This document shows, one piece after another, positions 16,084 through 56,505 of a DNA stretch of 64,000 nucleotides. A program made the translations under genes and the position numbers. How positions within the stretch are numbered: the stretch's first letter is position 1; each line of letters starts with the position of its first letter. Origin of the DNA: Ginglymostoma cirratum. Taxonomy: Eukaryota. Under the pieces are notes generated by a model. That model was not told where the DNA came from, did no database searches, and saw nothing but the letters and a program-made list of their open reading frames with translations. The stretch lies in assembly GCA_024137785.1 (NCBI GenBank), contig JAHRHZ010000035.1:20696677-20760676 (forward strand). Reading direction: 5' to 3'.

Positions 16084-16119
16084 ATTTCTGATGAAGGGTC
16101 TAGGCCCGAAACGTCAAGC
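16084..16119 (+). ncRNA. Minimal hammerhead ribozyme motif (PLE family A)
   Basis: CTGATGA-A-GGGT(ctag)GCCC-GAAA-CGTC: conserved core, stem II, ACGU palindromic stem III, GUC cleavage triplet. Confidence 0.7.
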
Positions 16120-16665
16120 TCTCCTACTCCTATGATGCTGCTTGGCCTGTTGTGTTCATCCAGCTCCACACCTTGTTATCTTAAATAACATTAGCCGTCT
16201 GTTTGTATACCATTACTATATCTTTATTTGTCTCCTCTGCATGTAAATTGATAAAAGCACATATACAAGTGAAACCCTAACCGAAAAATGCCACTCATGT
16301 GCATTACTTAAAATTATGGAAATTTTGGAGTGACAGTATGTAGTAACATAATGGTGGGCCTCGTGCTACAATTCTTTACAGAAGTATTGCTTGTTGGCAG
16401 CATCGCCATCTACAGCAGAAACAGGACACCCATCCAGAAAACGGGCAGAGCTGCAATTCTTTTCAAGCTACAAAATAAAAACCAAAAGAACTGTGGACAC
16501 TGTAAATCAGAAATGAAAACAGAAGTTGCTGGAAAAAGTCAGGTCTGGCAGCATCTGTGAAGAGAAACCAGAGTTAATGCTCTAGGTCCAGTGACTCTTC
16601 CTCAGAAGGGTCCTCAGAAACTTTAACACAGATTTCTCTTCACAGATGCTGCCAGACCTGCTGAG

Positions 16666-16977
16666 TTTAAGGTTTTAGCGAAGGTTTGTAGCTCGGGTTG
16701 TGGACGAGGTGGTTGACTTGCTCACCAACTGGTTGGTTCTCATTCATATGTTTCGTCACCACGCTAGGTAACATCATCAGTGAGGCCTCCGATGAAGTGA
16801 TGTTGTTCTACCCCACTTGGAATTTATACTGTCCTGGAAAGACACTACTCACGATAACAGAGAGTATATATTCCAAGTGGAGTAGAACAACATCACTTCA
16901 TCAGAGGCCTCACTGATGATGTTGCCTAGCATGGTGACAAAACAAACAAGCCAGCTCGGCGAGCAAATCAAGAACCT
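16666..16977. mobile_element. Penelope-derived fold-back element (family C) with 13-bp TSD
   Basis: Long inverted arms (gtcaccacgctaggtaacatcatcagtgaggcctc..gttgttctacc..ttggaat vs attccaagtggagtagaacaacatcacttcatcagaggcctcactgatgatgttgcctagcatggtgac); flanked by cagacctgctgag at 16653-16665 and 16978-16990. Confidence 0.82.
16744..16784 (-). ncRNA. Hammerhead ribozyme motif (PLE family C)
   Basis: Minus strand: tca-CTGATGA-T-GTTACC(tagcgt)GGTGAC-GAAAC-ATA-tga; 6-bp stem II, stem I tca/tga. Confidence 0.62.
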
Positions 16978-19084
16978 CAGACCTGCTGAGCTTTTCCAGC
17001 AACTTCTGTTTTTATTTTCAACCTACCGTTGTTTGCTCTTGGCACAAAGAGAAACATAAAAAGATGTCAAAATCAGTTTAACTGTCCATCTTTTGATCCA
17101 GGTCAACAGTGCAAAAGTCAAATTGGAGAGGAAAATAAATGTTTAACACAAGGAATCTTTAGTGCCAACTTTTCAAAGACTAGACTTTATTGGATAACTG
17201 GTTAAACAGCAATACAGTGGTTGATTCCCACAGCAGGGGCATTTCCGAATACCTACTGGCTCTCGTTTGCTCACAAATCAACAATCCAATCAATACGATG
17301 CAGTTTGGAGGAGTGTGCAGAATTTTGTACGAAAACCAATCTCACGCTTAAAATGTACTTATTTCACAAATCATTGTTGGAAAGATGCAAAAGAAAAATA
17401 TTTTTTGACAATCTCCATAGTCACTGGATAACTATTTTTTTAAATAGGAAAGATGGTAATGAAGTTGGAGGGAACATCTGATAAAATTACCTCAACAGTG
17501 GTCACCTCTAGTGACCAATATGCCACTGCACCCTGGTAAACATAGAAAAACCGTGTATTGCCAAAGCAACTTATGATCAATGGTTTCAGGTAAGTGTAAC
17601 TGAAAACATACGCAAGGAAGTGTCACATATGCAAGCTTTTTGAAGTAATCCTAAGAACAGAATGCAAGCAATACTACCATTGGCATCCCTCTGCCATTTC
17701 TCCATGAAATCTACAAGCACTAGTTGACTGTAAAATTCATTCTTTCTTTTCTTAAATTAAAAAAAAATGCCTGTAGATGACAGAGTATCATACTAACAGT
17801 TTATTCATAGATTTGTAAAATAAGCAAAACATTAAGACTTTCAGACAAATTCAACTGTAAAGATACTGATACGTGCGAAATAACCAGCAACACTGATTGC
17901 ATTTTATAAAACAATGCACATATAATCTATATACCAGTTTGCTGTTACAATAGCAATTCTGTGCCCTCCAAATAAAGGACAGCTAATTGTAAACTAGTGC
18001 CATTTGTTATTCCACCCCCACCCCCGAGCGGATCAGGAGCTGGGAAGCCAATGGATTAGTATAATGACAGGCTATGCCACCAAGTGGTTGAACACAAGTT
18101 CAGTCCCACATGACTCTTAACTGGCATCACTCCAATTCCTAACTTTTCCATCTGATACAGAGATTTCTCCAGAGAGACAACTGAATCAAGAGGCCTATTC
18201 AATGTGCTGAGCACTGTCTAAATCCTAATATAACACTTCCAGTAAAATACAAGCTGAACATCTTCAGGGACTCTCATTTACAGAATTGTACAACATTGTG
18301 GAAAATTACCTGCTTAAAATTTCCAAAAATATCACAATAAAATTTATACTTGATCAGCTAAGTGAAGTTTATGAATTGCTGAAGGACCAGTACGTTTTCC
18401 AACAGCATTTAAATTTAAAAACCTACTCCCACAAAACTTTTCCAATTGCAAAGAAGCGTCTATCAAGGAACTGATTCCAACAATTGTAATTGGCAACCCC
18501 AAATCAAAAACAAATAATCTAGCTCAATATTAATCTCAATAGTTTTTTTCCAGATTGACAGTTTTGAAGCACTTAACTTCCAGATTCACTTATGTCAAAT
18601 GCTGCTTTGCATGTGTCTTTTCTAGACATTGTTGCCAGATGGAAAATATTAAGCAAAAAGGACTGTAACTAAATCAATCTGCTACAGAATAGTGCCAAAA
18701 GGCCCCATGCTAACTACAAGCAGATTTGCAGGCAGGTCTCATTCTGTTACGACCTGGGTTCTGGCACATCCTTTGCCCTTTCTAACAGCAGGAGGCCAAG
18801 AGCTCGCTGAGAGCTGCTACTGTGCCAAACGGACTGTGGAGTGCTTACTGCTCGAGTGCTTCTACTGAGAGAGTGCGAATCCAAAAGTCCATTGTAAACA
18901 ACTACTGGTACTTCCTGGCTGCTACTGTGCCATACATTTGGTTACTAAATGTTTCAACTAAAATAATGCATTTTAAGCCTTTTAAAAAAATCCAAACTCA
19001 GTGGCATTTTCAAAGTGAAGCTTTTATTATATAAAAACACATTTGTTCTATACTTATTATACTTCACTCCTCAAAACTTATATT

Positions 19085-19290
19085 TGTTAGCTCAACTGAC
19101 TGGATGGCTGGCTTGCGATGCAAAGTGATGCCAGCAGCATGGATTCAATTTCCATGCCAACTGAGGTCACCACGAAGCTTTCTTGACCTCACCCCTTACC
19201 CAAGGTGTGGTGATTCTCAAGTTAAACTCACCCCCCATCAACTCTCTCCAATGACAGAGCAGCCCCATGATCCTCTGAGGCTATTCTACC
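19085..19290 (+). mobile_element. tRNA-derived SINE (second family), diverged
   Basis: ttagctcaactgactgg (A-box-like) and ggattcaatttcc (B-box-like); body homologous to 47490-47700 (tgagg..tggtga..ctcaagttaaac). Confidence 0.65.
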
Positions 19291-21589: not shown

Positions 21590-21687
21590 TTCATTCACTA
21601 CTGGACATGGGATTTCGGGGTCAATGTTTAGGCCAGAATTTATTACCCAGCCCCTAGTTGCCCTTGAGGAGGTGGTGGTGAGCTGTA
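21590..21687 (-). mobile_element. 3' tail of the CR1/jockey-group LINE family found at 47776
   Basis: atttattacccagcccctagttgcccttgaggaggtggtggtgagctg matches 47830-47875. Confidence 0.65.
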
Positions 21688-27600: not shown

Positions 27601-29314
27601 TTTTACAAGTCTTGAAAACTAAGTGTGGAATAGAAACATAAATAAGCTCCCAGCATCAATAATGACAGCATGCCTTGGTTGATGGCTAAACAAGAAACTT
27701 CTCCTCCATAAACTATATGGTATGGGAGACCAGAACAGAATAAAATGATTAAAAGGTTAAAACACATCAGCATTCTTACGGCAAAAAAAAAAATCAGAAA
27801 TGAGTAAATAAGCACTATTTGGCTATGATATTACTAGTAAAATGTTTCTGCTTCTTTGGATCTTAGACATTGAAAATGATAACAATACCATAGCACATGA
27901 CTATCGAATAAAAACACTTCAGAAATATTAGTTGAAGTTAGATTTCCAAATATTTAACTGAGCATGCATGACAACCTTTGACCCATAAGTAGTACCAGTT
28001 AAATTTGTAATTTCTAAAGTTCTACAAAACCTGTAATTCATTTTTTAGATGTTTGAAAATGTAGCAGCCATGTGGTAAAACACAAAAGAAAGATTAAGTC
28101 AAAAGCCAACTGTAACAGGAGGGAAAACAGAGAAGGCACAGTTATGAGGAGCTGTGGTTGAAATACACAAACAGGCCAGAAAACCAGAGTGTTACAGCAG
28201 AGGTTATGAAGTAGATTGTCTTAAGGCTGCTGCTTCAGATTTGCCAGAACTGACCAGACCATTGTATAAGATTGATTGAAGCAGTCCAATAAAGGCATTT
28301 CTGGGGCATCTGTGCCATAAAGGCTATTATGAATATTGCCAAGGAAATTCTGCAGGAGTGTATCATTCAAGTGACCACCGTCTCCCCGGACCTTGGATTG
28401 AACGTGACTGACAATGAATGCAAAGTGAGAAATCGCCTGCACCAGATATCAAGTTAAAGAAATTTGGAACTGCATGTGGCACTATATTTGTTCAGAGTGT
28501 GATGCAGGTACTTCTGATTATGCAAGTCATAGTTTTGTTGAATCAACTATTTAAAGAGAAATTTACTTTTCATTTGAAGTATCATTTGCCTGTTCATTCA
28601 TGTGTAATTTGTGCTAAAGTAAAAACTCCAAGAGGTGAAATCTTATTGATATTTTCTTGACTTTGGGGTCATTTAGTAAATTTGGTTCTTTAACTTTATT
28701 CACCTATGGGAAATTGTGGTGTAGCTTCATAAACACAGCTGTACTTGTATGAAGGGATATCAAATTAGAATTATAGTGTGCAAGTGAAAATTTTATGCTG
28801 CAGTGAATGACGTGATGCAATAGGAATTGTGCTCCTCCTGGACTAGAAATCACTCCTCCAACACTCCTATGCACAAGTCTACAACAATGCCTCAAATCAG
28901 AACTTTGCCAAACCACAAGTGCAGTATCTTTATTCATCATATTTCTCAATTTGATAGCAGATGCTAACTTTCATCATCATTCACCATGATAATTAAGCAG
29001 TAAAGAAAGTCTCTACGTCTCATCATAGAAAACATATGGATTGAAATAATGTGTTCAATAAAACAATGCATGCTCATTGCTCTCAGACACATTACCTTAA
29101 CGAACAGAAAACAGTAACAGGAATACGCCAATTGACCCTTCGAGCCTCTTCTGCCATTCAATTTGATCAGGGCTGATCATCCTACTCAGTATCCTATTCC
29201 TTCTTCCACCCCATATACTTTGAACCTTTTAGTTCTAAGAATTATATCTGACTCCTTCTCGAAAACATTCAATGTTTTGGCCTCAACCACTTTCTCGAGC
29301 AGAGAATTCCATAG

Positions 29315-29546
29315 TGTCAGTGTCAACGCAGCGTGGAGCTGGAGGAACACAGCAGTTCAAGCAGCATCAGAGGAGCAGGAAAGTTGACGTTTCGGATCAG
29401 GACCCTTCATGAGACCGGTTCTGATGAAGGGTCTCGACCCGAAACATCGACTTTCCTGTTCCCCTGATGTTGCCTGACCCGCTATATTCGTCCAGCTCCA
29501 TACTGTGCTGACTCTGACTCCAACATTTGTAGTTCTTGCTATCTCT
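29315..29546. mobile_element. Penelope family A fold-back element with hammerhead cores on both arms and an 11-bp TSD
   Basis: Arms are symmetric about accggt (29414-29419); TSD gaattccatag (29304-29314) / gaattccacag (29547-29557). Confidence 0.85.
29417..29452 (+). ncRNA. Hammerhead ribozyme motif (family A, plus arm)
   Basis: ggtt-CTGATGA-A-GGGTC(tc)GACCC-GAAAC-ATC-gact; stem III has an ACGT to ACAT change consistent with CpG decay. Confidence 0.6.
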
Positions 29547-32445: not shown

Positions 32446-32565
32446 CTTAGAATACAGAAGCAAGTTTTGGCCCCAGAAGATAAGCGACAGAATCCAAACC
32501 TCTGCTTGCTGTCAATGTCAGTGAGTACAAATGTAAAGTTCTGGCCAACTTGGCTGACTGTAAGG
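32446..32565 (-). CDS. DENND1A: DENND1A internal coding exon, 120 nt, uDENN domain (probably the human exon 5 equivalent)
   Basis: Minus strand cctgctttgttcttctttcag|C CTT ACA GTC AGC CAA ... TGT ATT CTA AG|gtgaga = (S)LTVSQVGQNFTFVLTDIDSKQRFGFCRLSSGAKTCFCIL(S). Splices in frame to the 60927-60976 exon (AG+C = Ser) and continues the recalled DENND1A sequence. Confidence 0.96.
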
Positions 32566-34705: not shown

Positions 34706-34709
34706 CTTC

Positions 34710-35079
34710 TGTAGCGACTGCAGCAAGGTCAGCCAGGTGGACCTCATAGTATAGGAGCTTGCTGATTAGACCAGATTAACAGCCCCAATCAGGGAATCCT
34801 GGCTGACAGATGAGAACAGGAGTATCAGACACCCTGTCAGGCTCTGAGGGAGCTGGACAGTGTCAATGATTCTCCACGTGCAAATAAAGGGTGACGTAGT
34901 AAAAACCGAAAGAACTGCAGATGCTGTAAATGAGGAACAAAAACAGGAGTTGCTGGAAAAGGTCAACAGGTCTGGCAGCATCTGTGAAGGTAAAAACAGA
35001 GTCAACATTTCAGGTCCGGTGACCCTTCCTCAGAACTCTGACTTGGAGATGGGATACCAGCTTCTGTGGAGTTATTTCA
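34710..35079 (+). mobile_element. 5' LTR of a Gypsy retrotransposon (contains a PLE insertion)
   Basis: Begins TGtagcgac, ends gttatttCA, internal aataaa, immediately followed by PBS-like gtggcaataacag. Confidence 0.72.
34900..35040 (-). mobile_element. Penelope family B terminal repeat with hammerhead motif, inserted in the LTR
   Basis: Minus strand cagagtt-CTGAGGA-A-GGGTC(accg)GACCT-GAAAT-GTT-gactctg with a 7-bp stem I; sequence matches 16478-16610 and 55335-55400. Confidence 0.8.
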
Positions 35080-36812
35080 GTGGCAATAACAGAAAAGCAG
35101 GCTTGCAACAGTTGTCTTTGACTTGGGGTAAGCATTTTTGACATCATATCATCATTTGTGAAGCTTGAGTTTCTCGATCCTGCTGTTGAAGGCTGGGCCC
35201 ATTATGTGGAAAGTTCATATATACACAAAGCTTCATGAAGGTGGTCATTGGCCATACGTGCTTCCAATTGCATTTAAATGAGGATTCCCAAAAGTATGCG
35301 AGATTTAATACCCATAAGGGTTTGTACCAATATATGAGACTAAGATTTGGGGTATCAAAACCCAAGCAATTTTTCAGCTGACGATGGAGAACATTTTACA
35401 CATTTTCTGCATGAGGTCACCATTTATCTAGATGATATGCTAATAACAGGGACTGCGTACAGAACTTGGATATCGTCGTTTCTCCTCAGCAGGCATACTC
35501 TTTAGAAGGGAAAAAGGTGTGTTCCAGGCACCCCAAATGACCTACTTGGGCTACAGAGTCGACCACACCGGGTTACACCACTGGAAAAGAAAGTGAGGGC
35601 GCCTGTACCAGAGCTTAGGTCTTTCCTTGGACTAGTGAATTATTATGGGAAGTTCAACAATAACCTGGCTTTGATCCTGGCATTCCCTGCACCAACTCTT
35701 AAAAAAAAATTCAGCCAAGACACAGCTTTCAAGGAAGATAAGAAACAGCTATTGTTGCTAAGGTGTTAACACACCATAATCGCAAGCAAGATCTGGTATT
35801 GACATGTGACGCCTCCCCGTACAGCATCAGGGTAGTAATATTAGCTCATAGATGGCCTAATGGAGAGGAGGACCCAATAGCATATGTATCTAGGACTTTG
35901 GGTAATGCAGTACGTAAATCTGCCCAGATACAGAAGGAAGGCTTGGTGGTCATATTTGGAGTCAGGATGTTCCATCAACACTTTTACGGACATAAATTTG
36001 TAGTAATAACCGATCACAAACCCCTGCTAGGGCTAATTAAAGAGGACAAGGTAGTGTCACCCATCGCTTCAGGCTGAATTCAGCAGTTGGATTTAACACC
36101 AAGTGTGTGTAATTACTAGTCAGAACACTATCAGGGAGGACAAATAGCGAATGTGGATGCATTGAGCCGCCTCCCACTGGCAGATACACCACTGGTGGTA
36201 CTGCCACTGGAAGAGTCTGTAATGGTCTTAAGTTTTCTGGACACATCTTCCAGTCAGAGCTACAATATCAGACTTCGAACGCAGAAAGATCCAGTCCTGG
36301 CAAAACTGAAACAGCTGGTGGTGATCGGGGAAACCAAAGGACAATCACGACCAGAATCAAAACCTTTCTGGACCCCAAGAGACCAGATCACAGTAGAGGG
36401 CAGCACAGTGGCTCAGTGGTAAGCACTGCTGCCTCACAGCGCCAGGGACCCGGGTTCGACGTGGAGTTTGCACATTCTCCCCATGTCTGCGTGGGTTTCC
36501 TCCGGGTGCTCCGGTTTCCTCCCACAGGCCAAAGACGTGCAGGCTATGTGGACTGGCCGTGCTAAATTGCCTGTAGTGTTCAGGGATGTGTAGATTATGT
36601 GGGTTATAGGGGGATGGGTCAGTGTGGACTTGTTGGGCTGAAGGGCCGGTTTCCACACAGTAGGGATTCTATTCTATCCTATCCTAAATTATTATGGGGA
36701 GCTACAGTGACTGTCCCGAGCAAAGGTTGCCGCCAGATACTAGCTGAACCCCCACCAGGGTCATCCAGAGTTTCCAAAATGAAGATGGTGGCAAGAAATC
36801 ATCTGGTGGCCA
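35080..36812 (+). mobile_element. Internally deleted, degraded Gypsy (K02A2.6-like) pol: RT, RNase H, start of the integrase Zn-finger
   Basis: NTHKGLYQYMRLRFGV and YLDDMLIT (about 35305-35450); LTCDASPY..PIAYVSRTL..KEGL..ITDHKPLLGL; DALSRLPL; SKMKMVAR. Many stops and frameshifts; no 3' LTR seen. Confidence 0.9.
36398..36686 (+). mobile_element. HE1-type V-SINE inserted in Gypsy pol
   Basis: A box gtggctcagtgg, B box gggttcga, V-domain gtggagtttgcacattctccccatgtctgcgtgggtttcctccgggtgctccggtttcctcccaca, CR1-like tail ttgggctgaagggcc and attct/atcct repeats. Confidence 0.92.
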
Positions 36813-37611
36813 GGGGTGGATACATCCCACAGGCACACCTTTGCTACTTCACCCCAGTGTTATTTGAACCCCATTATCTCCTCATACCTCCAACACCTCC
36901 AGTGTGTAAAAAGCTCCTGAGATAACGACCTCCCCAGGTTTATTAGCTCTCCACTTCTAGGGATGTTTTGTCCCCTCTCTCTCTCAATTTTCCACTTGTT
37001 TCACTTTTTCCATTTTGTGCACCCTTTCCCTTCACCCTACCTTTCAGCTGCCTCACCATCTGCAACTCCCCCTTAAGATCAGCCTTAAGCCTCCCATTTT
37101 GAACAATATTTTCCTTTTTGTCCCCTCACTCCTTTATATCTTTGATGTACAATAGGGTTTTTGTTCCTGTATTAAATATTCTACATCAATACAAATTGCA
37201 GTGTTTTGTTATGGGGAAAGAAGCAATTGATATTTTAAACACATCAAAGCTCTCTCAAGCAAAGTACTGAAATGATTCAATACAATGCTCCATTATATAC
37301 AGAAGGAATTTTTTTGACAAAGAACAAATTCAAACACTTGCCAAGAACAAAGGTTTAATAAATTAATGCAAAGCATTAAATGGAAATATTGGAAGCATTT
37401 TTTGAGCTATGATTTCATTACTCCTGTGGTAACTGCGAGTTGCTGGTCAAGTTGTGTCGGACCTCCAAAAGCTGAGTAATAACAGTTGCTGACAAACTCA
37501 GCATTTAAGTAAACGGAGTAGTGTGAATTTTGTGGGTTGAGCTCACAGATATTCACGAAACATGCCAGAAAAAGTTAAAATTAAAATTAACTTAAAATTA
37601 ACTTTTGCCCA

Positions 37612-38578
37612 TTTTTGTTTGTCATTTATATAAATTTAGATGAGAATATAGAAAGCAAGTAAGTTTGCAGATGATACCAGAATTGGTGGCATAGTGGACA
37701 GTGAAGAAGGTTACTTAAGATTACAAAGAGATCTTGATCAATTGGGTCAATTGGGTCAATGGGCTAAAGAGTAGCAGCTGGAGTTCAATCTGATTAAATG
37801 AGAGGTATTGCATTTTGGTAAAACAAACAAGAGCAGGACATATACAATTAAAAAAGTAGGGGCTTGGGTAATATTGTAGAACAGAGACCTTGGGGTTCAA
37901 GTACATAATTCTTTGAAGTTTACATCACACTAGATAGGGTGGTTAAGAAGGCATTTAGCACATTGTGTTCATTGCTCAGACCTTTGAGTATAAGAGTCGG
38001 GAAGGCACGTTGAGGTTGTACAGGGCACTGGCGAGGCCTCTTCTGGAGTACTGTCCAATATTGGTCTCTCTGTTAGAAGAAGGATATTATTAAACTGGAA
38101 ATGGTTCAGAAGAGATTTACAAGGATGTTGCCGGGAATGGAGGGTTTGGGTTAAATGGAGAGGCTAGATAAGCTGGAACCTTCTTCACTGGAGTATTGGA
38201 GTTTGACAGGTGACCTTATAGCAGTTTATATGGTCATGAGGGGTATTGATGAGGTGAAATGGCAGGTGTCTTTTCCCTAGGGTGGGGAATTTCAAGACCA
38301 GGGGGCATAAATTTCAGGTGAGAGGAGAAAGATTTTTTAAAAAAACCATCAGGGGCAATTTCTTCACACAAAATGGTTAGAGCGTGGAATGAACTTCCAG
38401 AGGAAGGGTGGATGCAGGTAGTTACAACATGTAAAACACACTAAGATAAGTACATGAATAAGAAATGTTTGGAGGGATATGGGCCAAGCACAGGCAGGTG
38501 TTTGGAATTTAGTTTAGGATTATGTTCGGCATGGACTGGTTGGACTGGAGGGCATGTTTCTGTGCTCTATGACTCTAA
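37612..38578 (+). mobile_element. 5'-truncated CR1 LINE
   Basis: aagtttgcagatgatacc (KFADDT) through to 3' end gctctatgactctaa. Confidence 0.9.
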
Positions 38579-38919
38579 CTTAAAATTGACAACATCGAAG
38601 GAAACTGATTGGTATTGAATTATTGGTCGAGACTTTAGTTTCTATCTCTTTCCTCCCTTACTCCCAAAATTCTTTCCCTCAAATTATTTTGATTTATTTA
38701 CATGATTTAGCACTGAACTAAGTATCATAATTTGTACTTTTTGGTTTGCTCTGTAAGCCTCAGTAAAGATCCTTCAATCGGATTGGTTACAGCAATGCAA
38801 CATTTCTAGAAGGCTGCAGCCTTCAGAACTCAACATCGAATTAAATCATTAAGGCCTGAACATCACATTCCATGTGCTATACCCACCCCAAACTCCCTGG
38901 CCCTGTCATGATATGGACT

Positions 38920-39255
38920 GTTTTCATCACAGCCAACCAATTTTTACCAACTCATTGTCACCATTATCTGCTTTTCTCCTTCCCTGCCTTGTTATCAGCC
39001 ATCTCTTTGCCTACTTAACTGTCTCTCTCTTTCTCTAGGTTTCATCTCCACCTATGCATTCACTCCTTTCCTTCTCCCACCCTCAACCCACTGTTATCAG
39101 CATAAATTTTCCTAGCTACCATCACCCCTGAGGAAAGGTAATGGACTTGAAATGTTAACTCTACTTTCTCTCTACATCTGCCAGATCTGCTGAGTTTCTC
39201 CAGCAATTCCTGTCTGTGTTTCAGAGTTTCAGCATCTGCAGTTCTTCGATTTATA
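38920..39255 (+). mobile_element. Degraded Penelope family B 3' region/pLTR
   Basis: ctgaggaaaggtaatggacttgaaatgttaactct (decayed hammerhead), then ctgccagatctgctgagtttctccagcaatt..cagcatctgcagttctt. Confidence 0.7.
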
Positions 39256-40339
39256 TTCCTGGTATTTCTCCTGTTCATACAGTCTCTAGGTACCCCAGAA
39301 GGCATTGCCCTGTTTGACTCTCTAATGCTGCAGGTTCCAGCGCAAAGGCTCAAAGAAAGTTTGTGAGAAAGTACATTAATCTGCAGTTAACTGTAAAATC
39401 TAGTCAACGCACCGGGACTTGACTTTGCTTCATACTGCCACAAGTTTAGTGACACATACGAATGTATTAATTGCAGCAAGTCCTCACTTAAAGTTATGGT
39501 TGCATATCTTAAAGTCACAACTTTAAATGAAACAACTTTAAATGAATCACAGAGTCCCATAGAAATCCCCATTAAAACTGAAGTTAGGTTCCTCTGAATA
39601 TCTCTAGCTCGGCAAAACAATGGTTGAAGTACAGTACTACATATTCTGAACTGAAACAGTTTGTAAAATGAAGTAATCCACAAAATATAACAGAAACACT
39701 ATACAGTTAAGTGCTTCAGTACATTTCTAAGCAGAAAATAACTTTGAAGTTCTATTAAGTTGAAATGGTGCGCATCCTAAATGTCTACATTCATAAATTA
39801 AGTAAGCCTTCAAATTAAAATAAATTTTAAAAATAGGAGAAATACAAGATAAAAGTATGCATTATAAAGGCATGTTAAAATTATACTGACCTGATGAAGT
39901 TTTAATTGACTAGGCTCCATCTAGTGCCAGAAGCTGTTTGATGTAATTACAAGTCCAGAACTACCAGCACAAGCCAATTCCTGCCATTAGGTGGAGCCCC
40001 AGACTTCAGTGCAAGTTCAGAACAGGAGCTGGGAGTGTGGAGTGGACACTGCAGGCTTTAAAGGTAAGAACAGAGGGGTTTGGTTGCTGGTTTGATGGTA
40101 ATTGTGATGGTGATTGTTGTGGTGCAGGGGATGGGGCAGGAACCAGAGGAAGACCAAAGAGACTTAGGAATAAGTACGGAAGCACAGGGACAAGGTTTTG
40201 ACAGCAGGCAAGTGACAGAACAGAAAGTCTATGACAAACAACATTAAACAGCAAATGATAAAGTTAAACCAATATATTGTCACTATTTTGTTAATGAGGT
40301 TGAAGCCAAACAACATTTAAGAGTCAAATTTAAACAAGA

Positions 40340-40904: not shown

Positions 40905-41027
40905 ATAGTAAGAACTGCCAATGCTGGAGTCAGAGATAACACAGTGTGGAGCAGGAGGAACACAGCAGGGTCCTGACCGAAACGCCAGCTTTCCTGCTCC
41001 TCTGATGCTGCCTGGCCTGCTGTGTTC
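40905..41027. mobile_element. Collapsed Penelope family A fold-back with 13-bp TSD
   Basis: ggaacacagcagg ... cctgctgtgttcc inverted arms with the centre deleted; catccaattagag at 40892-40904 and 41028-41040. Confidence 0.78.
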
Positions 41028-41700: not shown

Positions 41701-43624
41701 TGAGGTTTGATAAATTATTTATTTTACTTTTCTTATACTTTTTATGAACTTTACCATCAATTTCTGTACTATTTTGAACCTTAGGAATATAACAGACCTA
41801 ACAATTTACCCTATATTCATCAAAATAGCTAGCTTCTCCCCCTGCAGGTGATCAGGGACCAATTTCTACAGGGCACAGAAGTTAGTAAAAGCAAAAGGAG
41901 CACCTCATTCCGATCTTCCCCAATTCCCAACACTCCGCCTAAAGTCACACTGAGATGCTCTATGTACATGCTGAGTTAACTCAGCTCCAGGTACAGAAAC
42001 AAACAGTTTAAGATGTTTTCCTGAATTCACTAACTTCAGCTTGTATATTCCTGCTTAAGCCTAGAAACACTTTACAATTAATACTAAAGTTCAGTTAAAC
42101 ATTAAATTAAAATATAAAATATCAACAAAATTTCTAGAAATTAAAACTTTTAGAAATAGATTAAGACACCCCTCACACATCCAATTCCTAGCGTTCTGTT
42201 CAAAGTTGCACTCAGCTTCACATTAGTGTAAGACTGACTTCTCAGCAAATATTAGTCACCCGAAGTGTGAACTGGGGAAGGTGACAGAGCTTTCTTTAAA
42301 ACTAGAAGAGATGTGATTGTCCAAAACAGCCATGTTTTGAAGGCACAGAGATGGCTAATAGTGCCAGCTGCTAGAAGTCCGGGTGAAAGTGCGTACAACA
42401 CTTTGAAACATTGTTAACAAGAATAGAATTTTTGAAGCCAGCACAATGATAACATCGTCACACCACCAGGATCAAAAACGCAACACAGAAACAACTGTAA
42501 TTAGGAGGCCACACTGCTCTATCTCAACTGACCTTCATGCTTAGGGTTTCACTTAAAGCAGCTCACCTTGGGAAATGAAGGATTGTTAGCTGGACTGCAC
42601 AAGTAAATCCCTTGGAAAAACTTAGCCAATGATAGCACTATAAGCAAACTAGAATCCTCACTCCGAAGATTGTGTAAATGTATTGGGAAAAACACTGTAT
42701 CTTAGGCAGCATTAAAAACTATTACACTAAACCTTTCCCACTTCTTTAGGATTTATGACTGATCTATTTTCTTGACACATTCTGGCATTACATTGCTATT
42801 CTCTGACAACAGCTGGTTGTCTAGCTGTAGGAATCAGCAGGTTTGCCAGCTATCCTTTTATCACAAGTTCATCAATGTGCATTCAGTCCAGACTAAACTG
42901 GAAAAGCAATCTACCCATATTAAATGAACCATCTGGATCAAATTCGAAGAGAGTAGAAATGTACGAAAAAAGGTTGGAACTTTCAACGTAAATAATAAAA
43001 CAGCAAAATTTTTAACTGGCCACACGGTTGGAATGGAAGTGGATGGGCTTTCAATTTTCCACCACCTGTCAATGTGCCAGGGTTTTCTACCTCTAGGCTA
43101 TTTTGGAAATATCAGTTCGGGAAAGAAAATGTAAATGGCTTCCTCCACATAAGCAACATGTTGCCAATAAGGAATCATTGAGGACTTATGAAAACCAATC
43201 TCCAGTGCCATCGGAAAAATTAATCAGGAGATAGGAACTCCCATTCACCCACTGGTTAAATGCACAGCCCCAAAATGGAGGCAAACTCCAACGTGCAAAC
43301 TAATAAAAGCAGGCCAGTTCTCCATCAATTGTTTTTGACATTCCATCCCATGGTCATGACCACAACTGTTTATAGTTACAACTACAGCCATCTTGCGGAG
43401 GGATTCCTACAGTACAACAGCACTTGAAAATACTTCATCGGCTGTAAAATGCTTGAGATGTGTGGTGTCAGTGTAAAGCACTGTACAAATTCATGTTCAT
43501 TCTTTCTTTCTAACACTTTGGCAGCTGTGGCCAGATTCATTCTAACCTTTCTCAAAGGCCTTTACTATAGTCATGGAGAGGGTATGGGAAAGTATTTTAT
43601 TGGGGGAGGGGGGATTACAATGCT

Positions 43625-45012
43625 ATTAGGCAAGAACTATGGAGCACCAATTGGGGTCAGATGTTCTCAGGGAAATGCACCACAGAATTGTGGAGGTTGT
43701 TTAGGGAGCAGTTGCTACAGGTACTGGATAGGTTTGTTCCACTGAGGCAAGGAGAAGATGGTATGGTGAAGGAACCTTGGATGACAAAACATGTGGAACA
43801 TCTAGTCAAGAGGAAGAAGGAAGCTTACTTAAGGTTGAGGAAGCAAGGATCGGACAGGGCTGTAGAGGTCTACAAGGTAGCCAGCAAGGAACTAAAGAAT
43901 GGACTTAGGAGAGTTAGAAAGGGGTATGAGAAAACCTTGGTGGGTAGGATCAAGGAAATCCCCAATATATTTTTATACTTATACTTTCTATACTTATGTG
44001 AGGAACATGAGGATGGCCAGACTGAAGGTGGGGGCAAACAGGGACAGAGGGAACTTGTGTACGGAGTCAGAGGCGTTAGGGGAGGTCCTTAATGAATACT
44101 TTGCTTCAGTATTCACCTGTGAGAGGGACCTTGACGTTTGTGAGGACAGCATGAAATGGGCAGATACGCTCGAACAGGTTTATGTTAGGGAGGAGGATGT
44201 GCTAGGAATTTTGAAAAACATGAGGATAGATAAGTCCCCTGGGACAAACGGGATATATACAAGGTTACTACGTGAAGTGAGGGAAGAGATTGCTGCCCCT
44301 TTGGCAATGATCTTTGCATCCTCACTGTCCACTGGAGTAGTACCAGATGATTGGAGGGTGGCGAATGTCATTCCCTTGTGCAAGAAAGGGAACAGGGATA
44401 ATCCTGGAAATTACAGACCAGTCAGTCTTACTTCTGTGGTGGGAAAATTATTGGAGAGGATTCTGAGAGATAGAATTTATGATTATTTGGAAAAGCACAG
44501 TTTGATTAGAAATAGTCAGCATGGCTTTGAGAGGGGCAGGTCATGCCTCACAAGCCTTATTGAATTCTTTGAGGATGTGACAAAACACATCAATGAAGAT
44601 AGAGCAGTGGATGTGGTGTATATGGGTTTTAGCAAGGCATTCGATAAGGTTCCACACGGTAGGTTCATTCAGAAAGTAAGGAGGCATGGGATTCAGGGAA
44701 ATTTGGCTGTCTGGATACAAAACTGGCTGTCCAATAGAAGACAGAGGTTGGTAGTAGATGGAAAGTACTCAGCCTGGAGCTCGGTGACCAGTGGTGTTCC
44801 GCAGGGATCTGCTCTGGGACCTCTGCTCTTTGTAATCTTTATAAATGACTTGGATGAGGAAGTGGATGGGTGTGTTAACAAGGTTGCCGATGACACGAAG
44901 GTTGGAGGAGTTTTGGACAGCATCGGAGGGCTGTTGTAGGTTGTAATGGGGCATTGACAGGATGCAGAGCTGGGCAAAGAAGTGGCAGATGGAATTCAAC
45001 GCAGAAAAGCGT
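43625..45012 (+). mobile_element. CR1 LINE ORF2 internal fragment with a long open RT frame
   Basis: ORF 43899-44939: [68 protein letters not shown]. Confidence 0.95.
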
Positions 45013-45019
45013 GAAGAAT

Positions 45020-45242
45020 CATGAATTTATGGAATTCACTACCCCAAAGTGTGGTGGATCTGTGATATTCAGTAATTTTGAGGAGCAGATAGACAGATTT
45101 TTAATTAGTAATGGGTTGAAGGCTTATGCAGAGCAGACAGGAAAAGAAAGTTGAGGCCAAGATGAAATCAACCATGAATGCATCAAATGGCACAGCAGTT
45201 TCAAGGGGCTGAATTGCCTATTCCTGCTCCTAGTCCTTATAT
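45020..45242 (+). mobile_element. CR1 3' tail of a different subfamily, abutting the RT fragment
   Basis: tggaattcactacccca..gatagacagatttttaattagtaa..ggctgaattgcctattcctgctcct end type, unlike the ctatgactct tails. Confidence 0.7.
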
Positions 45243-46432: not shown

Positions 46433-46547
46433 AGAAAACAACGTGTCAAAATACTTCAGCGATTTTCATGTAGATCAAAAGGTGCAACCCAACAATACTT
46501 ATGATAATTTTGCTAACTTTTAACCCCTACACATTATATTTATCAAT

Positions 46548-46745
46548 GTGGAGGTGTGGTGTTGGACTGGGGTGGACAAAGTCAAAAATCACACAACACC
46601 AGGTTATGGTCCAACAGGTTTATTTGAAGACACAAGCTTTCAGAGTCTCTCTCCTTCTTCAGGTGAAGGACTGAGACTCCAGAAGTTTGTCTCTTCAAAT
46701 AAAACTGTTTGACTATAACCTGGTGTTGTGCGATTTTTGACCTTG
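46548..46745. mobile_element. Penelope-derived fold-back element (family D)
   Basis: Inverted arms gtcaaaaatcacacaacaccaggttat..caaacag/tttatttgaaga vs tcttcaaataaa..ataacctggtgttgtgcgatttttgac. Confidence 0.8.
46631..46665 (-). ncRNA. Hammerhead ribozyme motif (family D)
   Basis: Minus strand cac-CTGAAGA-A-GGAG(agaga)CTCT-GAAAG-CTT-gtg: stem I cac/gtg, palindromic AAGCUU stem III. Confidence 0.65.
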
Positions 46746-46984
46746 ATAAATATACACACATTCTAAAAAAATGTTTTGCACTTTGCCAGAAGTTCCAGAT
46801 TATTTTTTGATTTGTTCTGTTAGTCAAGGAAGTTTTAAAGTCTAGATCAAATAAGGATATCCCCTATGTTTTTAAACATCTGTAATTTTCAGTCTCAGTG
46901 TATTGCAAACTGCTACATAACAAATTGAGTAGTCACACTTGGAATGTAAAGAAATGTGACTCTCAATTTATCCAAGGCATAGCC

Positions 46985-47296: not shown

Positions 47297-47489
47297 AGCA
47301 ACAAAGTAGATGAAGATTTTTGCTTAAACTTTAAACATTTCCAAAGAACAACAAGTTGCACTTTTTCACAGCTAGAAATACAACATTAAATACTTTCTCT
47401 TCTAGGATTCCAATTACTGTAGGCATGTCAGAAACAGAAGCAGTATTGGGCCATTTCACGCTTCCAGCTTGTTCTCCCACTCAATGGGT

Positions 47490-47700
47490 GCCAGTAGCTC
47501 AGACGGCTAGACAGTAGGTTTACAGAGCAAAGTAATGCAAGTACCATGGGTTTAATTCCTGCATTGGCTGAGGTTGCCATGAAGGACTCTCCTTCTCAAC
47601 CTCTTCCCTTACCTGAGGCATGGTGACCCTCAAGTTAAACCACCAGTCATTTCTTGTTAATGAGAGACTAGCCCTATGGTTCAGAAGGACTACTTTACCT
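47490..47700 (+). mobile_element. tRNA-derived SINE (second family) nested in a CR1 tail
   Basis: tagctcagacggctag A box, gggtttaattcc B box; homologous to 19085-19290; CR1 tail pieces on both sides (47430-47485, 47705-47770). Confidence 0.68.
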
Positions 47701-47775
47701 TTTATTATTCAGTAAGATCATATCTGATCTACTTCCTCAACTCACCTCCTGTGCGAACTCCATATCCTTCATAAT

Positions 47776-50600
47776 TTTTTTTATTATTCATTTTGTGCAA
47801 TGTAGGCATCGCTGGCAGGCCACCGTTTCTTACCCGTCCCTAGTTGCCCTTGAGAAGGCGGTGATTAGCTGCCTTCTTGAACTGCTGCAGTCCACCTGTT
47901 GTGGGTTAACCCACAGTGCCATTAGGGAGGGAATTCCAGGATTTTAACCAAGTGACAGCTAAGGAACAGTGATATATTTCCAAGTCAAGATGTGAATGGC
48001 TTGGAAGGGAACCTGAAGGTGGTGATGTTCCCATGTATCTACTGCCCTTGTCCTTCCAGATGGAACTGGTCATGGGTTTGGAAAGTGCTGTCTGATGATC
48101 TTTGAAGAATTTCTGCAGGGCATCTTGTGGATAGTGCACACTGCTGCTACTGAGCTTCGGGGGAAGAGAGAGTGGAGAGTTCATAGATGCAGTGCCAAAT
48201 CAAGCCAGCTGCTTTGTCCTGGATGGTGTCAAGCTTCTTGAGTGTTGTGGGGCTGCACCCATCCAGGCAAGTGGGTGTATTGCATCACACTCTTCACTTG
48301 TACTTTGTAGAGTTGACAGGCTTTCAGGAGTCAGGAGGTGTGTTACTCGCCACTGTATTGCTATTCTCTGACCTGCTCTTGTAGTCACTATGTTTATATG
48401 GAGTCCAGTTGAGTTTCTGATCAATGATAATTCCCAGGGCGTTGACAGTGTGAGATTCAGTGATGATAACACCATTCAAAGTCAAGGGCCAGTGGTTAAA
48501 TTGTCTCTTATTGGTGATGGTCATAGCATGGCATTTGTGCAGCGCGAATGTTACTTGCCACTTGTCAGTCCAAGCCTGGATATTGTCCAGATCTTGTTGC
48601 ATTTGGACACAGACTGCTTCAGTATCTGAGTCGTCACGAATGGTGCTGAACATTGTGCAATCATCGGCGAACATCCCCACTTCTGACCTTTTGACGGAGG
48701 GAAGGTCATTGATGAAGCAGCTGAAGATGGTTGAGCCGAGGACACTACCCTGAGAAACTTCTGCAGATGTGTCCCGGAGCACAGCTGACTGACGACCAAC
48801 AACCACGACCATCTTCCTACGTGTCAGGTACGACTCTAAACACCAGAGATGTTTGCCTCCGACACCCATTGATTCCAGTCTTGCTAGGGCTCCTTGATGC
48901 CACACTCAGTCGAAAGCAGTCTTGATGTCAAGGGCTGTCACTCTCACCTCACTTCTGGAACTTAGCTCTTTTGTCCATGTTTGAACCAAGGCTGTAATGA
49001 GGTCAAGGGCTGAACAGCCTTAGCGGAACCCAAACTGGGCATCACTGAGCAGGCGCTGCTTGATAGCACTGCTGATGACACCTTTCATCACTTCACTAAT
49101 GAAGAGGAGTAGACTGATGGGGAGGTAATTGGCCAGATTGGATCTGTCCTGCTTTTTATGTAGAGAACATGCTTGGGCAATTTTCCACATTATCGGGTAG
49201 ATGTCAGTGTTGTAACTGTACTTGGCTTGGCTAGGCTAGGGGAGCAGCAAGTTTTGGAGCACAAGTCTTCAGTACTATTGCCGGAATGTTGTCAGGGCCT
49301 GTAGCCTTTGCCATATCCAGCTGTTTCTTAATATCACATCGAGTGAATCGAATTAGCTGAAGACTGCTATCTGTAATGCCTTCGTCAGTGGTCCACAGCA
49401 GAGATGGATCATCCACTCAGCACTTCTGGCTGAAGACTGCTGCAAAAGCTTCAGCCTTACCTTTTGCACTGATATCCTGCGCTCTTCCATCATTGAGGAT
49501 GGGGATATTTGTGGAGCTTCCTCCTCCAGTCAGCTGTTTAATCATCCACCACCATTCATGACTGGAAGTGGCAGGGCTGCACAGCTTACCTCTGTCTGTC
49601 ATTTGCTGCTTCTGCTGTTTGGAATGCAAGTTGTCCTGTTTGGTAGCTTCACCAGGTTGACACCCCATCTTCTGCCCTCCTGCACTCTCCACTGAACCAG
49701 GGTTGATCCCCTAGCTTGATGGTAATGGTTGAGTGGGGGAAATGCCAGGCCATAAGGTTACAGATTGTGCTACAATACAATTCTGCTGCTGTTGATGGCC
49801 CACAGTGCCTCATGGATGCCCAGTCCAGAGTTGCTACATCTGTTCGAAGTCTGTCCCCTTTAAAACAATGGTAGTGCCACACAACACGATGGAGATTATT
49901 CTCAATGTAAAGGTGGCACTTCGTCTCCACAAGGACTGTGAGGTGGTCACTGTTACTGATACTGTCATGGACAGATGCATTTGCAGTTGGCAGATTGTAA
50001 GGATGAGGTCAAGTATGCTTGTCCCTCTTGCCGGTCTCCTCACCGCTTGCCACAGACTCAGTCTAATAGCTATGTCCTTTAGGACCTGACCAGCTCGATC
50101 AGTAGTACTGCTGCCGAGCCACTCTTGGTGGTGGACATTGAAATCCCCCATCCAGAGTGCCCTTGCCATCCTCAGTGCTTCCTCTAAATGTTGTTCAACA
50201 TGGAGGAGAACCAATTCATCAGCTGAGGGAGGGCAGTACGTGGTAATCAGCAGGAGGTTTCCTTGCCCATGTTGAACCTGAAGCCAAGAGACTTCATGGA
50301 ATCCAGAGTCAACATTGAGGACTCCCAGGTCAACTCCCTCCCGACTATATACCACTGAACCGGCCACTATGCTGAATCTGTCCTGCCAGTGGGACAGGAC
50401 ATATCCAGGGATGGTGATGGTGGTGTCTAGGGCATTGTCTGTAAGGTATGACTCCGAGTGTGACAATGTCAGGCTGTTGCTTGACTAGTCCGTGAGACAG
50501 CTCTCCCAATTTTGGCACTAGCCCTCAGATGTTAGTGAGGGGGTCTTTGCAGGGTTGACAGGGCTGTTTCTGTTGTTGACTTTTCCGGTGTCTGGGTTGA
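47776..50600 (-). mobile_element. CR1/jockey-group LINE, near-complete ORF2 (APE endonuclease + RT), pseudogenised
   Basis: Endonuclease: SESYL..IPGYVL..DR..GSVVY, WMGDFNVHH, ILDLILT (49834-50466). RT: KATGPDNIP, SQGSVLG..FINDLP..MFADDCT..DLDNIQAW..WQVTF (48324-48905). A-rich 3' end near 47776. Confidence 0.93.
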
Positions 50601-50619
50601 TGCAGATGCAAGAGGGAGA

Positions 50620-51321
50620 CGAGCGATCTAATAACTAACAAATCAGATCAAATTTCTGCAGTCCTGCCACATCCAGTTATGAATGATGGTAAGCAATTAG
50701 CAATTAGACAACTGACCTGAGGAAAAGGCTCCAAAAACATGCCCATCCTCAACAATGGCTTACCCCTAGCATGTCAGAACAAATAAAATAGAGCTGAATG
50801 ACATGCAGCCATCTTCAGCTAGAAGTGTTGAAAAGATCAATCATGGCTTCCTACTGAAGTCCTCAGCATCAGGTACCAGTGTCCAACTAATTCACTTCAC
50901 ATGATAAAAAATACAGCAAATGCTCTGGTCCTTGAAAAAAATCCCAGCGCTAGTACCAAAGGTTTGCGTTCCAGAATTTTTAACACCTCGAGCCATATTG
51001 TTCTGGTAAGCTAAAATATCAGCATCTACCTAGCAATAAAGAAAATTGTCCAGGTTAAATTCAGTCCAGTCAATTAGTAACCCCTTAGCGTACCTTATAT
51101 AATCAACAAAATCAAGGAAGTGTCATTGGACAGTGGTATCAAACAGAACTTACATAACAACCTGCTGAGCTGGTTGGATTCCATCAGGGCCACTCTGTTC
51201 CTGTCTGCATTAGGAGAATGGATAACAGTACTGTATTAAAGCGGTGTTAGCGAGGTGAGAGGAAACCAAGGCAACAGTAACTGACAGTGGCATCCAGAAG
51301 ACACCCAAAACTGACGTCAAT
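50620..51321 (+). mobile_element. Older copy of the same LINE family, left part (interrupted by Harbinger)
   Basis: ctgcagtcctgccacatccagttatgaatg..cccatcctcaa..gtggcatc..aaaactgacgtcaat is collinear with the reverse complement of 48870-49590. Confidence 0.72.
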
Positions 51322-54300: not shown

Positions 54301-54897
54301 CTGGCTTCTCATTTTCCTTGAGTGTGAACTGCTGCCTCTTCTTAGTTTTGTTTGTGTTCATGTTTGATGACTGCAAATAAACGCGTCCCATACGTGACAC
54401 TCCCTCATTAGCAATGATAGGATGCACATCAGCAATGGGGACAGAGAAGCAATGACTTCGGAGATGTGTAAGGACAAGTAAGCAGTGTGGCCTGGTGATT
54501 GTACAGCAACTGGAAAACAAGGTACAGCTGCATATACCAGAAAGTGTCAACGATGCTAGATATGCAGCATGAGCAGACTTATTTTGAGTCTGCTACACCA
54601 TCATTTTGTCAGTGGAGGGTAACTCCGTAATGCCATTGCTTGGCCAGGAGTCCAACTACAGCTTAAAGATGGCACTGGCACCATGTCAGACTAATCCAGG
54701 CCATCATTTGACAGGCAACTTCTTCCAGCTACCATGAGATGGTGGTATCAAGCTAACATTGGACAAACGTGCACAATAGGTAGTTAATGAGGCGAGTTTG
54801 GACCAAACAGCAAAAAACCCACTAGGCCTCATGGAATGAAGTCCCCATTAAACTTGACATAATTGACACTTAGCCAAAGTATCATAAGATTCAACTC
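51322..54897 (+). mobile_element. Degraded PIF/Harbinger DNA transposon
   Basis: TIR-like ends gggcagaatcttat / ataagattcaactc; transposase remnant EFIKRKGLRYINLQMIYDH..LEMCAHYSVSCLDS (about 54110-54225) resembles the HARBI1-type NRKG..S.N.Q..CD..PGS.HDS motif. The host LINE resumes right after. Confidence 0.78.
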
Positions 54898-55330
54898 AAA
54901 TCGAATTGAAGAGAACTTTTCACAAGTTGGAGTCACACATATCTCAAAGCAAGATGGTTTTAGTTTTTGAGATCATTCAGAGCCGGGTCATTGCTGCAGG
55001 ACTTCCTCAGGCTTCCTAAGCCCAATTATCTTCTGCTACATTAATGACTTTGCCTCCAACGTAAAGAAAGAAGCATGGATGTTCACTGATAACTACATGG
55101 TGTTCAGCGCTCGTTGCAATTCCACAGTTAATGAAGCAGTCCACGTCCACATGCAGAAAAACTGACAATAAAATCAGGCTTGGGCAGATAAGTGGGAAGT
55201 AACGCTCATGCTATGTTACTTTCGTCAATGCCTGGCAGTTGAGAAAACACTTAACTATCTGTCCTAGTCATTTCATTGCATTACCAAAATTGGTACATCA
55301 ACATTCTCTGGGATGCTAATGACCAGAAAC
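54898..55330 (+). mobile_element. Older LINE copy, right part
   Basis: gttggagtca..gcaagatggtt..cctcagg..atcttctgctacattaatgac..gatgttcactgat..caggcttgggcagataagtgg is collinear with the RT of 47776-50600. Confidence 0.72.
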
Positions 55331-55334
55331 AGGA

Positions 55335-55585
55335 GGCAGCATCCTTGAAGAAAAAAATCAGAGTTAACGTTTCAGGTCCGGTGACCCTTCCTCAGAACTG
55401 ATGGTAGCTGGGAAAATGTCAGTTTATATGCAGAAAACAGGTAGAGGGATGGGGTAGGGAGTAAAGGATAGGATAGAGCCCAAAGAGAGAGAGAAGAGTA
55501 GTTGGATAGACAAAGGAGTTGATAACGATCGGGCTAGGAGGGTGAATAGCTGCTAATGGGGGCTGTGACTAACAATAGGTAGTGT
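55335..55585 (-). mobile_element. Penelope family B 3' region/pLTR
   Basis: Matches family B copies at 16478 and 34900; continues at 56506. Confidence 0.8.
55362..55399 (-). ncRNA. Intact-looking minimal hammerhead ribozyme (family B)
   Basis: Minus strand agtt-CTGAGGA-A-GGGTC(accg)GACCT-GAAAC-GTT-aact: perfect 4-bp stem I, 5-bp stem II, AACGUU palindromic stem III. Confidence 0.75.
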
Positions 55586-56505
55586 CTCCATCTCGGGCAA
55601 CCACCTAGAAACAGATGTCCATTTCAAGCCCACTGACTCCCACAGCTACCTGGAATACACCTCCTCCCACCCACCCTCCTGCAAAAATGCCATCCCCTAT
55701 TCCCAATTCCTTCGCCTCCGCCGCATCTGCTCCCAGGATGAGACATTCCACTCCCGCACATCTCAAATGTCCTCATTCTTCAAGGACCGCAACTTCCCCC
55801 CTACAGTGGTAGAGAACGCCCTCGACCGTGTCTCCCGCATTTCCCAGAACACATCCCTCATGCCCCGTCCCCGCAACAATAACCAAAAAAGAATCCCCCT
55901 CGTCCTCACATACCACCCCACCAACCTCCGGATCCAACGCATCATCCTCCGACACTTCCGCCATCTGCAATCAGACCCCACCACCAAAGACATTTTTCCC
56001 TCCCCACCCTTATCTGCCTTCCGGAGGGAAGGCTGCAGGAACAGCAAATCATATTCAGCCTGGGAACCCTGCAGCCCAATGGCATCAATGTGGATTTCAC
56101 AAGCTTCAAAATCTCCCCTCCCCCAACCGCATCCCAAAACCAGCCCAGCTCATCACCACCTCCCTAACCTGTTTTTCCTCTCACCTCAAGCCACACCCCC
56201 ATCTCCTATCTACTAACATCATCCTACCCCCTTGACCAGTCCGTCCTCCCTGGACTGACCTACCTCCTCCCTACCCCCCTACCTACACTCACCTTTACTG
56301 GCTCCATCCCCGCCTCTTCGACTTGTCTGCCTCCTCTCCACCTATCCTCTCCTCTATCCACCTCCCCCTCGCTCCCTATTTATTTCAGAACCCTCTTCCC
56401 CTCCCCCATTTCTGATGAAGGGTTTAGGCCCGAAACGTCAAGTTTTCCTGCTCCTATGATGCTGCTTGACCTGCTGTGTTCATCCAGCCCCATGCTTGTT
56501 ATCTC
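55584..56505 (+). mobile_element. Penelope-like element (family A), 5'-truncated, GIY-YIG region internally deleted
   Basis: Open frame VSISGNHLETDVHFKPTDSHSYLEYTSSHPPSCKNAIPYSQFLRLRRICS..RIPLVLTYHP..PPLSAFRR, then a jump to QEQQIIFSLGTLQPNGINVDF; followed by a pyrimidine-rich UTR and the hammerhead-bearing terminal repeat. Confidence 0.92.
56408..56443 (+). ncRNA. Hammerhead ribozyme motif in the PLE family A terminal repeat
   Basis: attt-CTGATGA-A-GGGT(ttag)GCCC-GAAAC-GTC-aagt. Confidence 0.72.

Follow-up and report, generated by a model that had tools for sequence, protein, structure and literature searches.

Minimal hammerhead motifs in 5′-truncated Penelope-like insertions at the DENND1A locus of Ginglymostoma cirratum

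Penelope-like elements (PLEs) are already known to carry minimal hammerhead ribozymes (min-HHRs); one genome can hold several families, in which most motifs stand alone in truncated PLEs and some form opposite-strand pairs 100–700 bp apart (PMC4209133). We analyzed a 64-kb stretch of DNA from the shark Ginglymostoma cirratum (GCA_024137785.1, contig JAHRHZ010000035.1, positions 20,696,677 to 20,760,676; hereafter the window), in which an initial annotation had listed seven hammerhead motifs within one gene, here identified as DENND1A on the minus strand. The finding is real and was correctly ascribed to PLEs; it is largely ordinary, and the annotation over-split and over-interpreted it. The motifs are very probably minimal type I hammerheads in the terminal repeats (pLTRs) of at least three PLE lineages (families A and B together, C, and D), each locus being a dead 5′-truncated insertion. 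They share with the published min-HHRs the CUGANGA box plus an extra nucleotide, a G-led stem II, GAAA, a palindromic 15.2–16.2 step, NUH, and a helix I of 3–5 bp. By eye, relative to Fig. S3 of that study, family A is like the Acropora digitifera Neptune motif, family D like the Chrysemys motif (AGCU palindrome, CAAAUAAA box downstream), and family C like the Clonorchis motifs (extra U, 6-bp stem, 6-nt loop). The G10.1–U11.1 pair of B and D also occurs among the published motifs. The shark set differs in that no cartilaginous fish was seen in Table S1 or Fig. S3, and in that stem II of A, B and D, with 4–5 bp, is near the lower limit of the published lengths.

A motif descriptor (CUGANGA, 0–1 extra nucleotide, stem II of at least 4 bp, GAAA-N-N-U-H) gave eight matches in the window, all with an extra nucleotide after A9 and a stem II of 4–6 bp. 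C3 was at 16088, 29421, 39128 and 56412 on the plus strand and at 16780, 35033, 46662 and 55395 on the minus strand. The seven motifs of the initial annotation were all where it had placed them, each with CUGANGA, one extra nucleotide, stem II and GAAA-N-N-U-H; the eighth, a family B motif without stem I at 39128, had been overlooked. In 1000 block-wise dinucleotide shuffles the mean number of matches was 0.047 and the maximum 1, and a chance origin of the eight motifs was therefore rejected. When a stem I of at least 3 bp was required, 7 motifs were observed vs. 0.003 in the shuffles; adding an intact palindrome to the requirement left 4 vs. 0.001. Although the copies are not independent of one another, three unrelated lineages still far exceed chance. 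Helix I reached at least 3 bp in seven of the eight motifs (3–7 bp; none at 39128) and was predicted to be stable only at 35033, where the 7-bp stem I is partly contributed by the flank. Pair 10.1–11.1 was G–C in four motifs (A, C) and G–U in four (B, D). Core, extra nucleotide, stem II and helix I were thus as proposed for PLE minimal type I hammerheads. The palindrome capable of forming helix III was 4 nt long (ACGU or AGCU); it was intact in half of the motifs, and the other four had one CpG-type change each. Six-nucleotide versions of the palindrome take in A14 and N17. Of the short stem III palindromes described earlier, the 6-nt versions thus reduce to 4 nt, and that of family C has decayed to ACAU in both arms, its intact state being inferred. 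Rfam searches gave no hammerhead match at E≤10 for the window, nor at E≤1 for five related loci.

Ten 5′-truncated Penelope-like insertions (~4.3 kb) were found in these 64 kb of one gene, and the motifs mark their 3′ ends. Self-comparison of the window showed that five of the ten are head-to-head inverted doublets with the ribozyme ends inward. This anatomy, which buries the ribozyme, had been overlooked. In all five doublets (A1 and A2, the two subtypes into which family A divides, and B, C and D), a tail of 27–42 nt was present on one arm only, and the outer end of the short arm was one tail-length short. Two further loci had a 5′ inversion of the twin-priming type (40905–41027; 57208–57423 against 57196–56580). 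Target-site duplications (TSDs) of 11, 12, 13 and 16 nt were found at four of the ten loci, three of them doublets. Because the ribozyme is only ~95–135 nt from the element 3′ end, almost any truncated copy carries it. The copies, once described as mini-element families that keep the ribozyme, are better read as 5′-truncated or inverted insertion products. The loci and their parts, including 3′ untranslated regions (UTRs), are as follows.

15636–16183, both strands: family A (A1) doublet; minus arm 15636–15682 with a 34-nt tail, plus arm with an intact HHR; no clear TSD
16088 (C3) and 16115 (N17), plus strand: intact min-HHR of the A1 doublet plus arm
15683–16082: assembly gap of 400 N inside the A1 doublet, hiding its centre
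16472–17014, both strands: family B doublet; tail-bearing minus arm with C3 at 16605 and decayed GAAA; 12-nt TSD at 16460/17015
Within 16472–17014, plus strand: short arm of the B doublet, beginning at G8 and interrupted by element C
16669–16977, both strands: family C doublet, nested in the right arm of B; 16-nt TSD at 16653/16978 with 1 mismatch
16780 (C3), minus strand: HHR of the C doublet minus arm; palindrome decayed to ACAU, N17=A, 37-nt tail
Within 16669–16977, plus strand: plus arm of the C doublet, G12 lost
29315–29546, both strands: family A (A2) doublet; 11-nt TSD at 29304/29547
29413 (C3), minus strand, and 29421 (C3), plus strand: arms of the A2 doublet, the first with G5 changed, the second with a decayed palindrome and a ~27-nt tail
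34897–35037, minus strand: family B single arm, cut ~4 nt upstream of C3 35033; palindrome AUGU, G10.1–U11.1
38800–39257, plus strand: family B PLE 3′ end with endonuclease end, 3′ UTR, decayed HHR (C3 39128) without stem I, and tail
40905–41027, both strands: family A2 inversion of the twin-priming type, the tail on the minus arm and the plus arm beginning at stem II; exact 13-nt TSD (40892–40904/41028–41040)
46547–46745, both strands: family D doublet; minus-strand HHR with C3 at 46662, AGCU palindrome, G10.1–U11.1 and ~30-nt tail
Within 46547–46745, plus strand: plus arm of the D doublet, beginning at G8, GAAA lost
55335–55568, minus strand: family B PLE 3′ UTR and HHR (C3 55395, intact ACGU), aligning to 38952–39176
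55569–56504, plus strand: family A1 PLE, 5′-truncated and internally deleted, with 3′ UTR and intact HHR (C3 56412)
56505–57426, minus strand: family B PLE coding remnant with stops and frameshifts; linker Cys motifs and GIY-YIG region 57196–56580
57208–57423, plus strand: 5′-inverted thumb segment of the B coding remnant

The window has a single assembly gap; it falls within the A1 inverted doublet and is probably due to that structure. The A1 tail end and the adjoining flank form a short perfect hairpin (15620–15650). At each of its two junctions the 13-nt TSD of the A2 inversion has a few bases in common with the element, which is consistent with microhomology-primed twin priming. The D doublet is bounded by a 12-nt inverted repeat of AT-rich flank (46535–46546/46743–46754), as if it had landed in the centre of a pre-existing palindrome. 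Two of the ten insertions sit in another PLE copy (C in B, 16472–17014; A in B, 55335–57426), and a tendency of PLEs to insert into PLEs has been reported (PMC6765202).

Families A and B each follow a remnant of a reverse transcriptase (RT)/GIY-YIG coding sequence, and the coding link claimed for them in the initial annotation was confirmed. The A1 frame 55569–56213 was 89% identical to Rhincodon and Stegostoma proteins with RT and GIY-YIG; its RT end and thumb are joined to the endonuclease end by the internal deletion, and HHR A follows this end after ~270 nt. In Stegostoma, the reading frame of protein P0002 continues into the family A motif. The A element is nested, on the opposite strand, in the 3′ UTR of the B element. 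With this nested insertion discounted, HHR B lies behind a second PLE coding remnant. The two B pieces match successive parts of the B copy 38814–39176, the 3′ UTR start of 56505–57426 aligning to 38814–38906. The B remnant was ~50% identical to the A-type protein (47–53% to P0001). Pfam gave no match for the A and B fragments of the window themselves; the domains were assigned via homologues, which carry RVT_1 and GIY-YIG. Zinc-finger-like Cys motifs in the RT–endonuclease linker of the B remnant are conserved in the alignment of homologues; this part is deleted in the A copy and present in P0001. Linker Cys motifs have been given for Neptune and Nematis (PMC8557442), and Neptune is the one reported in vertebrates (bioRxiv 10.64898/2026.07.22.740005). 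These motifs indicate Neptune or Nematis, and given the vertebrate host A and B are probably of Neptune type. At nine related PLE loci, a same-strand min-HHR was found 116–130 nt behind the matched coding end in two; three had a min-HHR elsewhere or on the other strand, and four had none with an intact palindrome. These loci are on contigs filed as bacterial metagenome-assembled genomes (L001–L009). Their PLE genes are of eukaryote type and are accompanied by min-HHRs as well as long inverted repeats; contamination is the probable source.

The initial annotation had described four families with unrelated helices. For A and B this did not hold: their terminal repeats were 66–68% identical from C3 to tail over the whole length (3/3 pairs), their profiles matched one another (E 9e-9 to 3e-3), and in seven of nine A–B pairs the segments after the cleavage site beat shuffles (≤2 of 300 as good). 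A GGGU-type 5′ arm of stem II is common to both. The homology is limited to pLTR and protein; no similarity was detectable between the 3′ UTRs of A and B (106/500 shuffles scored as well). Families C and D matched neither A/B nor each other in profile and shuffle comparisons. Because A and B are homologous, we count three lineages, not four: judged by sequence, A and B are sister subfamilies of one lineage, and the window holds at least three. The claim that several PLE lineages coexist in this genome was upheld.

Endonuclease-positive PLE insertions described previously (PMC3846280; PMC8557442) show the same head-to-head inverted 5′-truncated copies, palindromic junctions and nesting in PLE copies, and their one-arm tail of 30–40 nt compares with 27–42 nt here. 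The shark copies differ in being mostly pLTR alone, as hairpins of 170–310 bp, in having TSDs of 11–16 nt rather than 8–10, and in junctions that cluster at the ribozyme 5′ edge. The published head-to-head junction palindromes were interpreted as self-priming (PMC3846280). In Anolis, the Poseidon element PAc nicks and extends both strands and reverse-transcribes uncleaved RNA from two start sites, between which the tail lies; its ribozyme is assisted by protein (PMC11167929). The shark doublets likewise point to two start sites bounding the tail. They differ from PAc in that A and B carry the linker Cys motifs given for Neptune and Nematis (PMC8557442).

Anatomy, homology, the A/B coding link, target duplications and decay were observed directly; the insertion steps proposed here are drawn from published PLE work. 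The RT/GIY-YIG protein would nick the target and start reverse transcription on uncleaved RNA, at either of two sites 27–42 nt apart, which would produce the one-sided tail. Copying would halt after ~100–180 nt, and a second, inverted copy would be joined head to head, through either fold-back self-priming or priming from a second nick, so that each doublet would be formed at insertion. For the ribozyme of the active parent to cut after N17, either dimerization through the 4-nt palindrome or assistance by protein would be needed. Once in the introns, copies would decay neutrally, very probably without cleavage of DENND1A pre-mRNA. Within A, B and C, long and short arm ends tend by eye to finish on a similar short motif, which suggests that the two start sites share a sequence signal; this was not evident in D.

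Several results weigh against dead 5′-truncated PLE insertions as the explanation of all loci. Six of the ten loci had no clear direct TSD, and D is flanked by an inverted repeat. No coding link for C or D was found in the window. For family C a word-based protein search was empty, and the two matches of a full phmmer scan were rejected as repeat-inflated artefacts; for family D the protein search was empty and the D pattern had no match in the genome-contig collection. The B copy at 35033 folded well in isolation (stems I and II, P ~0.95). Among the A and B copies, the core differed from the family majority less often than the rest (5/99 vs. 104/847, p=0.03). This excess is inflated by subfamily divergence and by the core-based finding of most copies, and it fits selection on active parents. 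Between sister arms of single insertions, core differences (7/35) were as frequent as those at other positions (51/320, p=0.48), in a test that is small and assumes arms identical at insertion. The initial annotation had proposed that core nucleotides no better conserved than their flanks would refute its reading; on this the sequences are divided, with no core conservation between sister arms but a better-kept core across the A/B copies. In addition, 5′ ends clustered at the HHR edge, which is not as random truncation predicts: of the nine loci that could be assessed, four had breakpoints within ~8 nt of C3 (doublets A2, B and D, and the single B arm ending at 35037), as did one inverted arm (40969). 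The post-hoc binomial p was ~1e-4 to 4e-3 for uniform spans of 500–200 nt over the nine loci. None of the nine had its breakpoint at the cleavage site.

These points, above all for C and D, bear on another reading, in which the copies are non-autonomous mini-elements, each amplified as one unit from a short or palindromic master by a PLE enzyme acting in trans. It is closest to the view of the initial annotation and to the retrozyme model; it accords with the missing coding sequence of C and D and with the recurrence of 5′ ends at the HHR edge, and non-autonomous PLE derivatives have been described (bioRxiv 10.64898/2026.07.22.740005; PMC8557442). We consider it unlikely. Copies of A and B vary widely in length and pass by degrees into coding remnants, junctions differ between the two A2 inverted loci, the shortfall of one tail-length in all five doublets is as expected if they formed at insertion, and the window contains no tandem units. 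Non-LTR retrozymes are likewise short, non-coding and pLTR-related with type I HHRs (PMC7229834; bioRxiv 10.64898/2026.07.22.740005), and have been reported in one chondrichthyan genome (bioRxiv 10.64898/2026.07.22.740005). They are, however, direct tandem repeats, whereas the shark copies have minimal HHRs and are scattered, either alone or in inverted pairs. Membership was rejected, as no direct tandem HHR units were found in the window.

The initial annotation had assigned C and D by analogy only, and no coding link was found for them here; doublet-plus-tail anatomy, the 16-nt TSD of C and the by-eye likeness to published motifs make their PLE status better than analogy, but fall short of proof. 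In family C, an ATG lies at A9, the cut site 28 nt downstream and an AC-rich element end 106 nt downstream. The corresponding distances in PAc, compared by layout and not by sequence, are 26 nt and 111–118 nt (PMC11167929). The ATG is a weak likeness because it arises almost automatically from the core of C. By this comparison C appears to have a Penelope/Poseidon-like layout.

The clustering at the HHR edge raises a further possibility, which we regard as improbable though worth stating: the hammerhead may act without cutting, as a stop-and-turn signal for RT, which would halt at the 5′ edge of the core while core self-complementarity turned the cDNA back. The centre of the B doublet is exactly the fold-back (3 bp, 4-nt loop) predicted from copy 55395. 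Against this, the predicted fold-back is weak (~0 kcal/mol) and common. Hairpin strength was not supported as the cause of clustering: a terminal hairpin can form at 7–12% of positions, many of them stronger than that at C3-2. Transcription start at the HHR edge would give the same breakpoint pattern. If the stop-and-turn reading is true, the resulting hairpin insertions of 170–250 bp would bury the ribozyme that they carry and burden introns with double-stranded RNA.

Two DENND1A exons were recognized in the window, which agrees with the earlier statement that all motifs lie in one gene:

60976–60927, minus strand: DENND1A exon of 50 nt, spliced in frame to the exon at 32565
32565–32446, minus strand: DENND1A exon of 120 nt (uDENN, residues 61–99), matching PDB 6ekk_A residues 60–99 (E 2.8e-20)

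The 50-nt exon was picked out with a short peptide motif. Pfam was run on 300 of 503 stop-free frames of at least 48 aa outside recognized repeats and gave one match. No third DENND1A exon was found in the window, although short exons could have escaped. Because DENND1A must extend past residue 99 and no exon was found in 1–32445, all hammerhead motifs are probably intronic. Expanded intronic PLEs have already been reported for the whale shark genome (10.1101/443036).

One or more copies could in principle resemble the conserved intronic hammerheads of amniotes and be domesticated ribozymes that cut DENND1A pre-mRNA. Four full motifs are in the host sense (55395, 46662, 35033, 16780), two with an intact palindrome (ACGU in 55395, AGCU in 46662), and 35033 has the 7-bp stem I. 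These two palindromes are mutually incompatible, however, and the monomers lack helix III; published min-HHRs cleaved weakly as dimers and not as monomers (PMC4209133). The D doublet is locked in a hairpin of -108.7 kcal/mol (z -13.5). With 150-nt flanks, the cost of the hammerhead fold was 27–37 kcal/mol in the three doublets tested and 6–13 in the other five copies. No tandem array contained a motif, and no copies were in direct tandem in the window. Sister arms of doublets differed by 13–23%, without core conservation, and the ACGU palindrome, which contains a CpG, survived in 5 of 12 A/B/C arms. The copies thus show neither the post-insertion core conservation nor the stable monomer fold of domesticated HHRs, and domestication is very improbable. 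They look as if they evolve neutrally after insertion, and are probably not functional.

The palindromes might instead be MITEs (DNA transposons) or microRNA-like hairpins, in which case the hammerhead match would be incidental; the long inverted arms with target duplications and a sub-threshold Rfam match of MIR1888 to the B doublet (16539–16661; 43 vs. 72 bits) are in line with this. Any long hairpin draws microRNA models, however, the arms are unequal by a tail, and arms also occur singly or in twin-priming inversions. Homology of the A and B arms to the 3′ end of RT-coding elements refutes this explanation for those families, and overall there is hardly any likelihood that it applies. B-type doublets can nevertheless pass for microRNA precursors, as the MIR1888 match is the B hairpin.

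These results add sharks to the genomes with PLE minimal hammerheads, at a density of 10 insertions (~4.3 kb) in 64 kb, and caution that such intronic motifs are mostly dead cargo. No paper on shark PLE hammerheads was found in a literature search with Repbase, Dfam and subscription papers outside its scope, and none on elasmobranch hammerhead ribozymes or on ribozyme, Penelope and self-priming together; the shark families may well be catalogued already in Repbase or Dfam. Because the very short shark insertions preserve, within a single unit of 200 bp, the 5′ junction together with both reverse transcription start sites, counting them across the genome could test how the inverted repeats of PLEs arise and whether the ribozyme plays a part in this. 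Such a role is worth testing because ribozyme cleavage was dispensable for PLE insertion in vitro (PMC11167929).

Much of the remainder of the window consists of CR1/L2-type and LTR-type RT remnants. A palindrome of ~200 nt at 15260–15462 (68% self-match) lacked a hammerhead motif and matched none of the four families. The frame at 12352–12873 matches Pfam ALKBH8_N and is presumably a LINE 3′ end, not a host exon. An RNase H-like fragment of an LTR retrotransposon lies at 35742–36562, and LINE-type RT/endonuclease remnants, 63–72% mutually alike, were found at 4519–6376, 9981–10422, 37606–38596, 43571–45038, 48327–50979 and 58059–59916.

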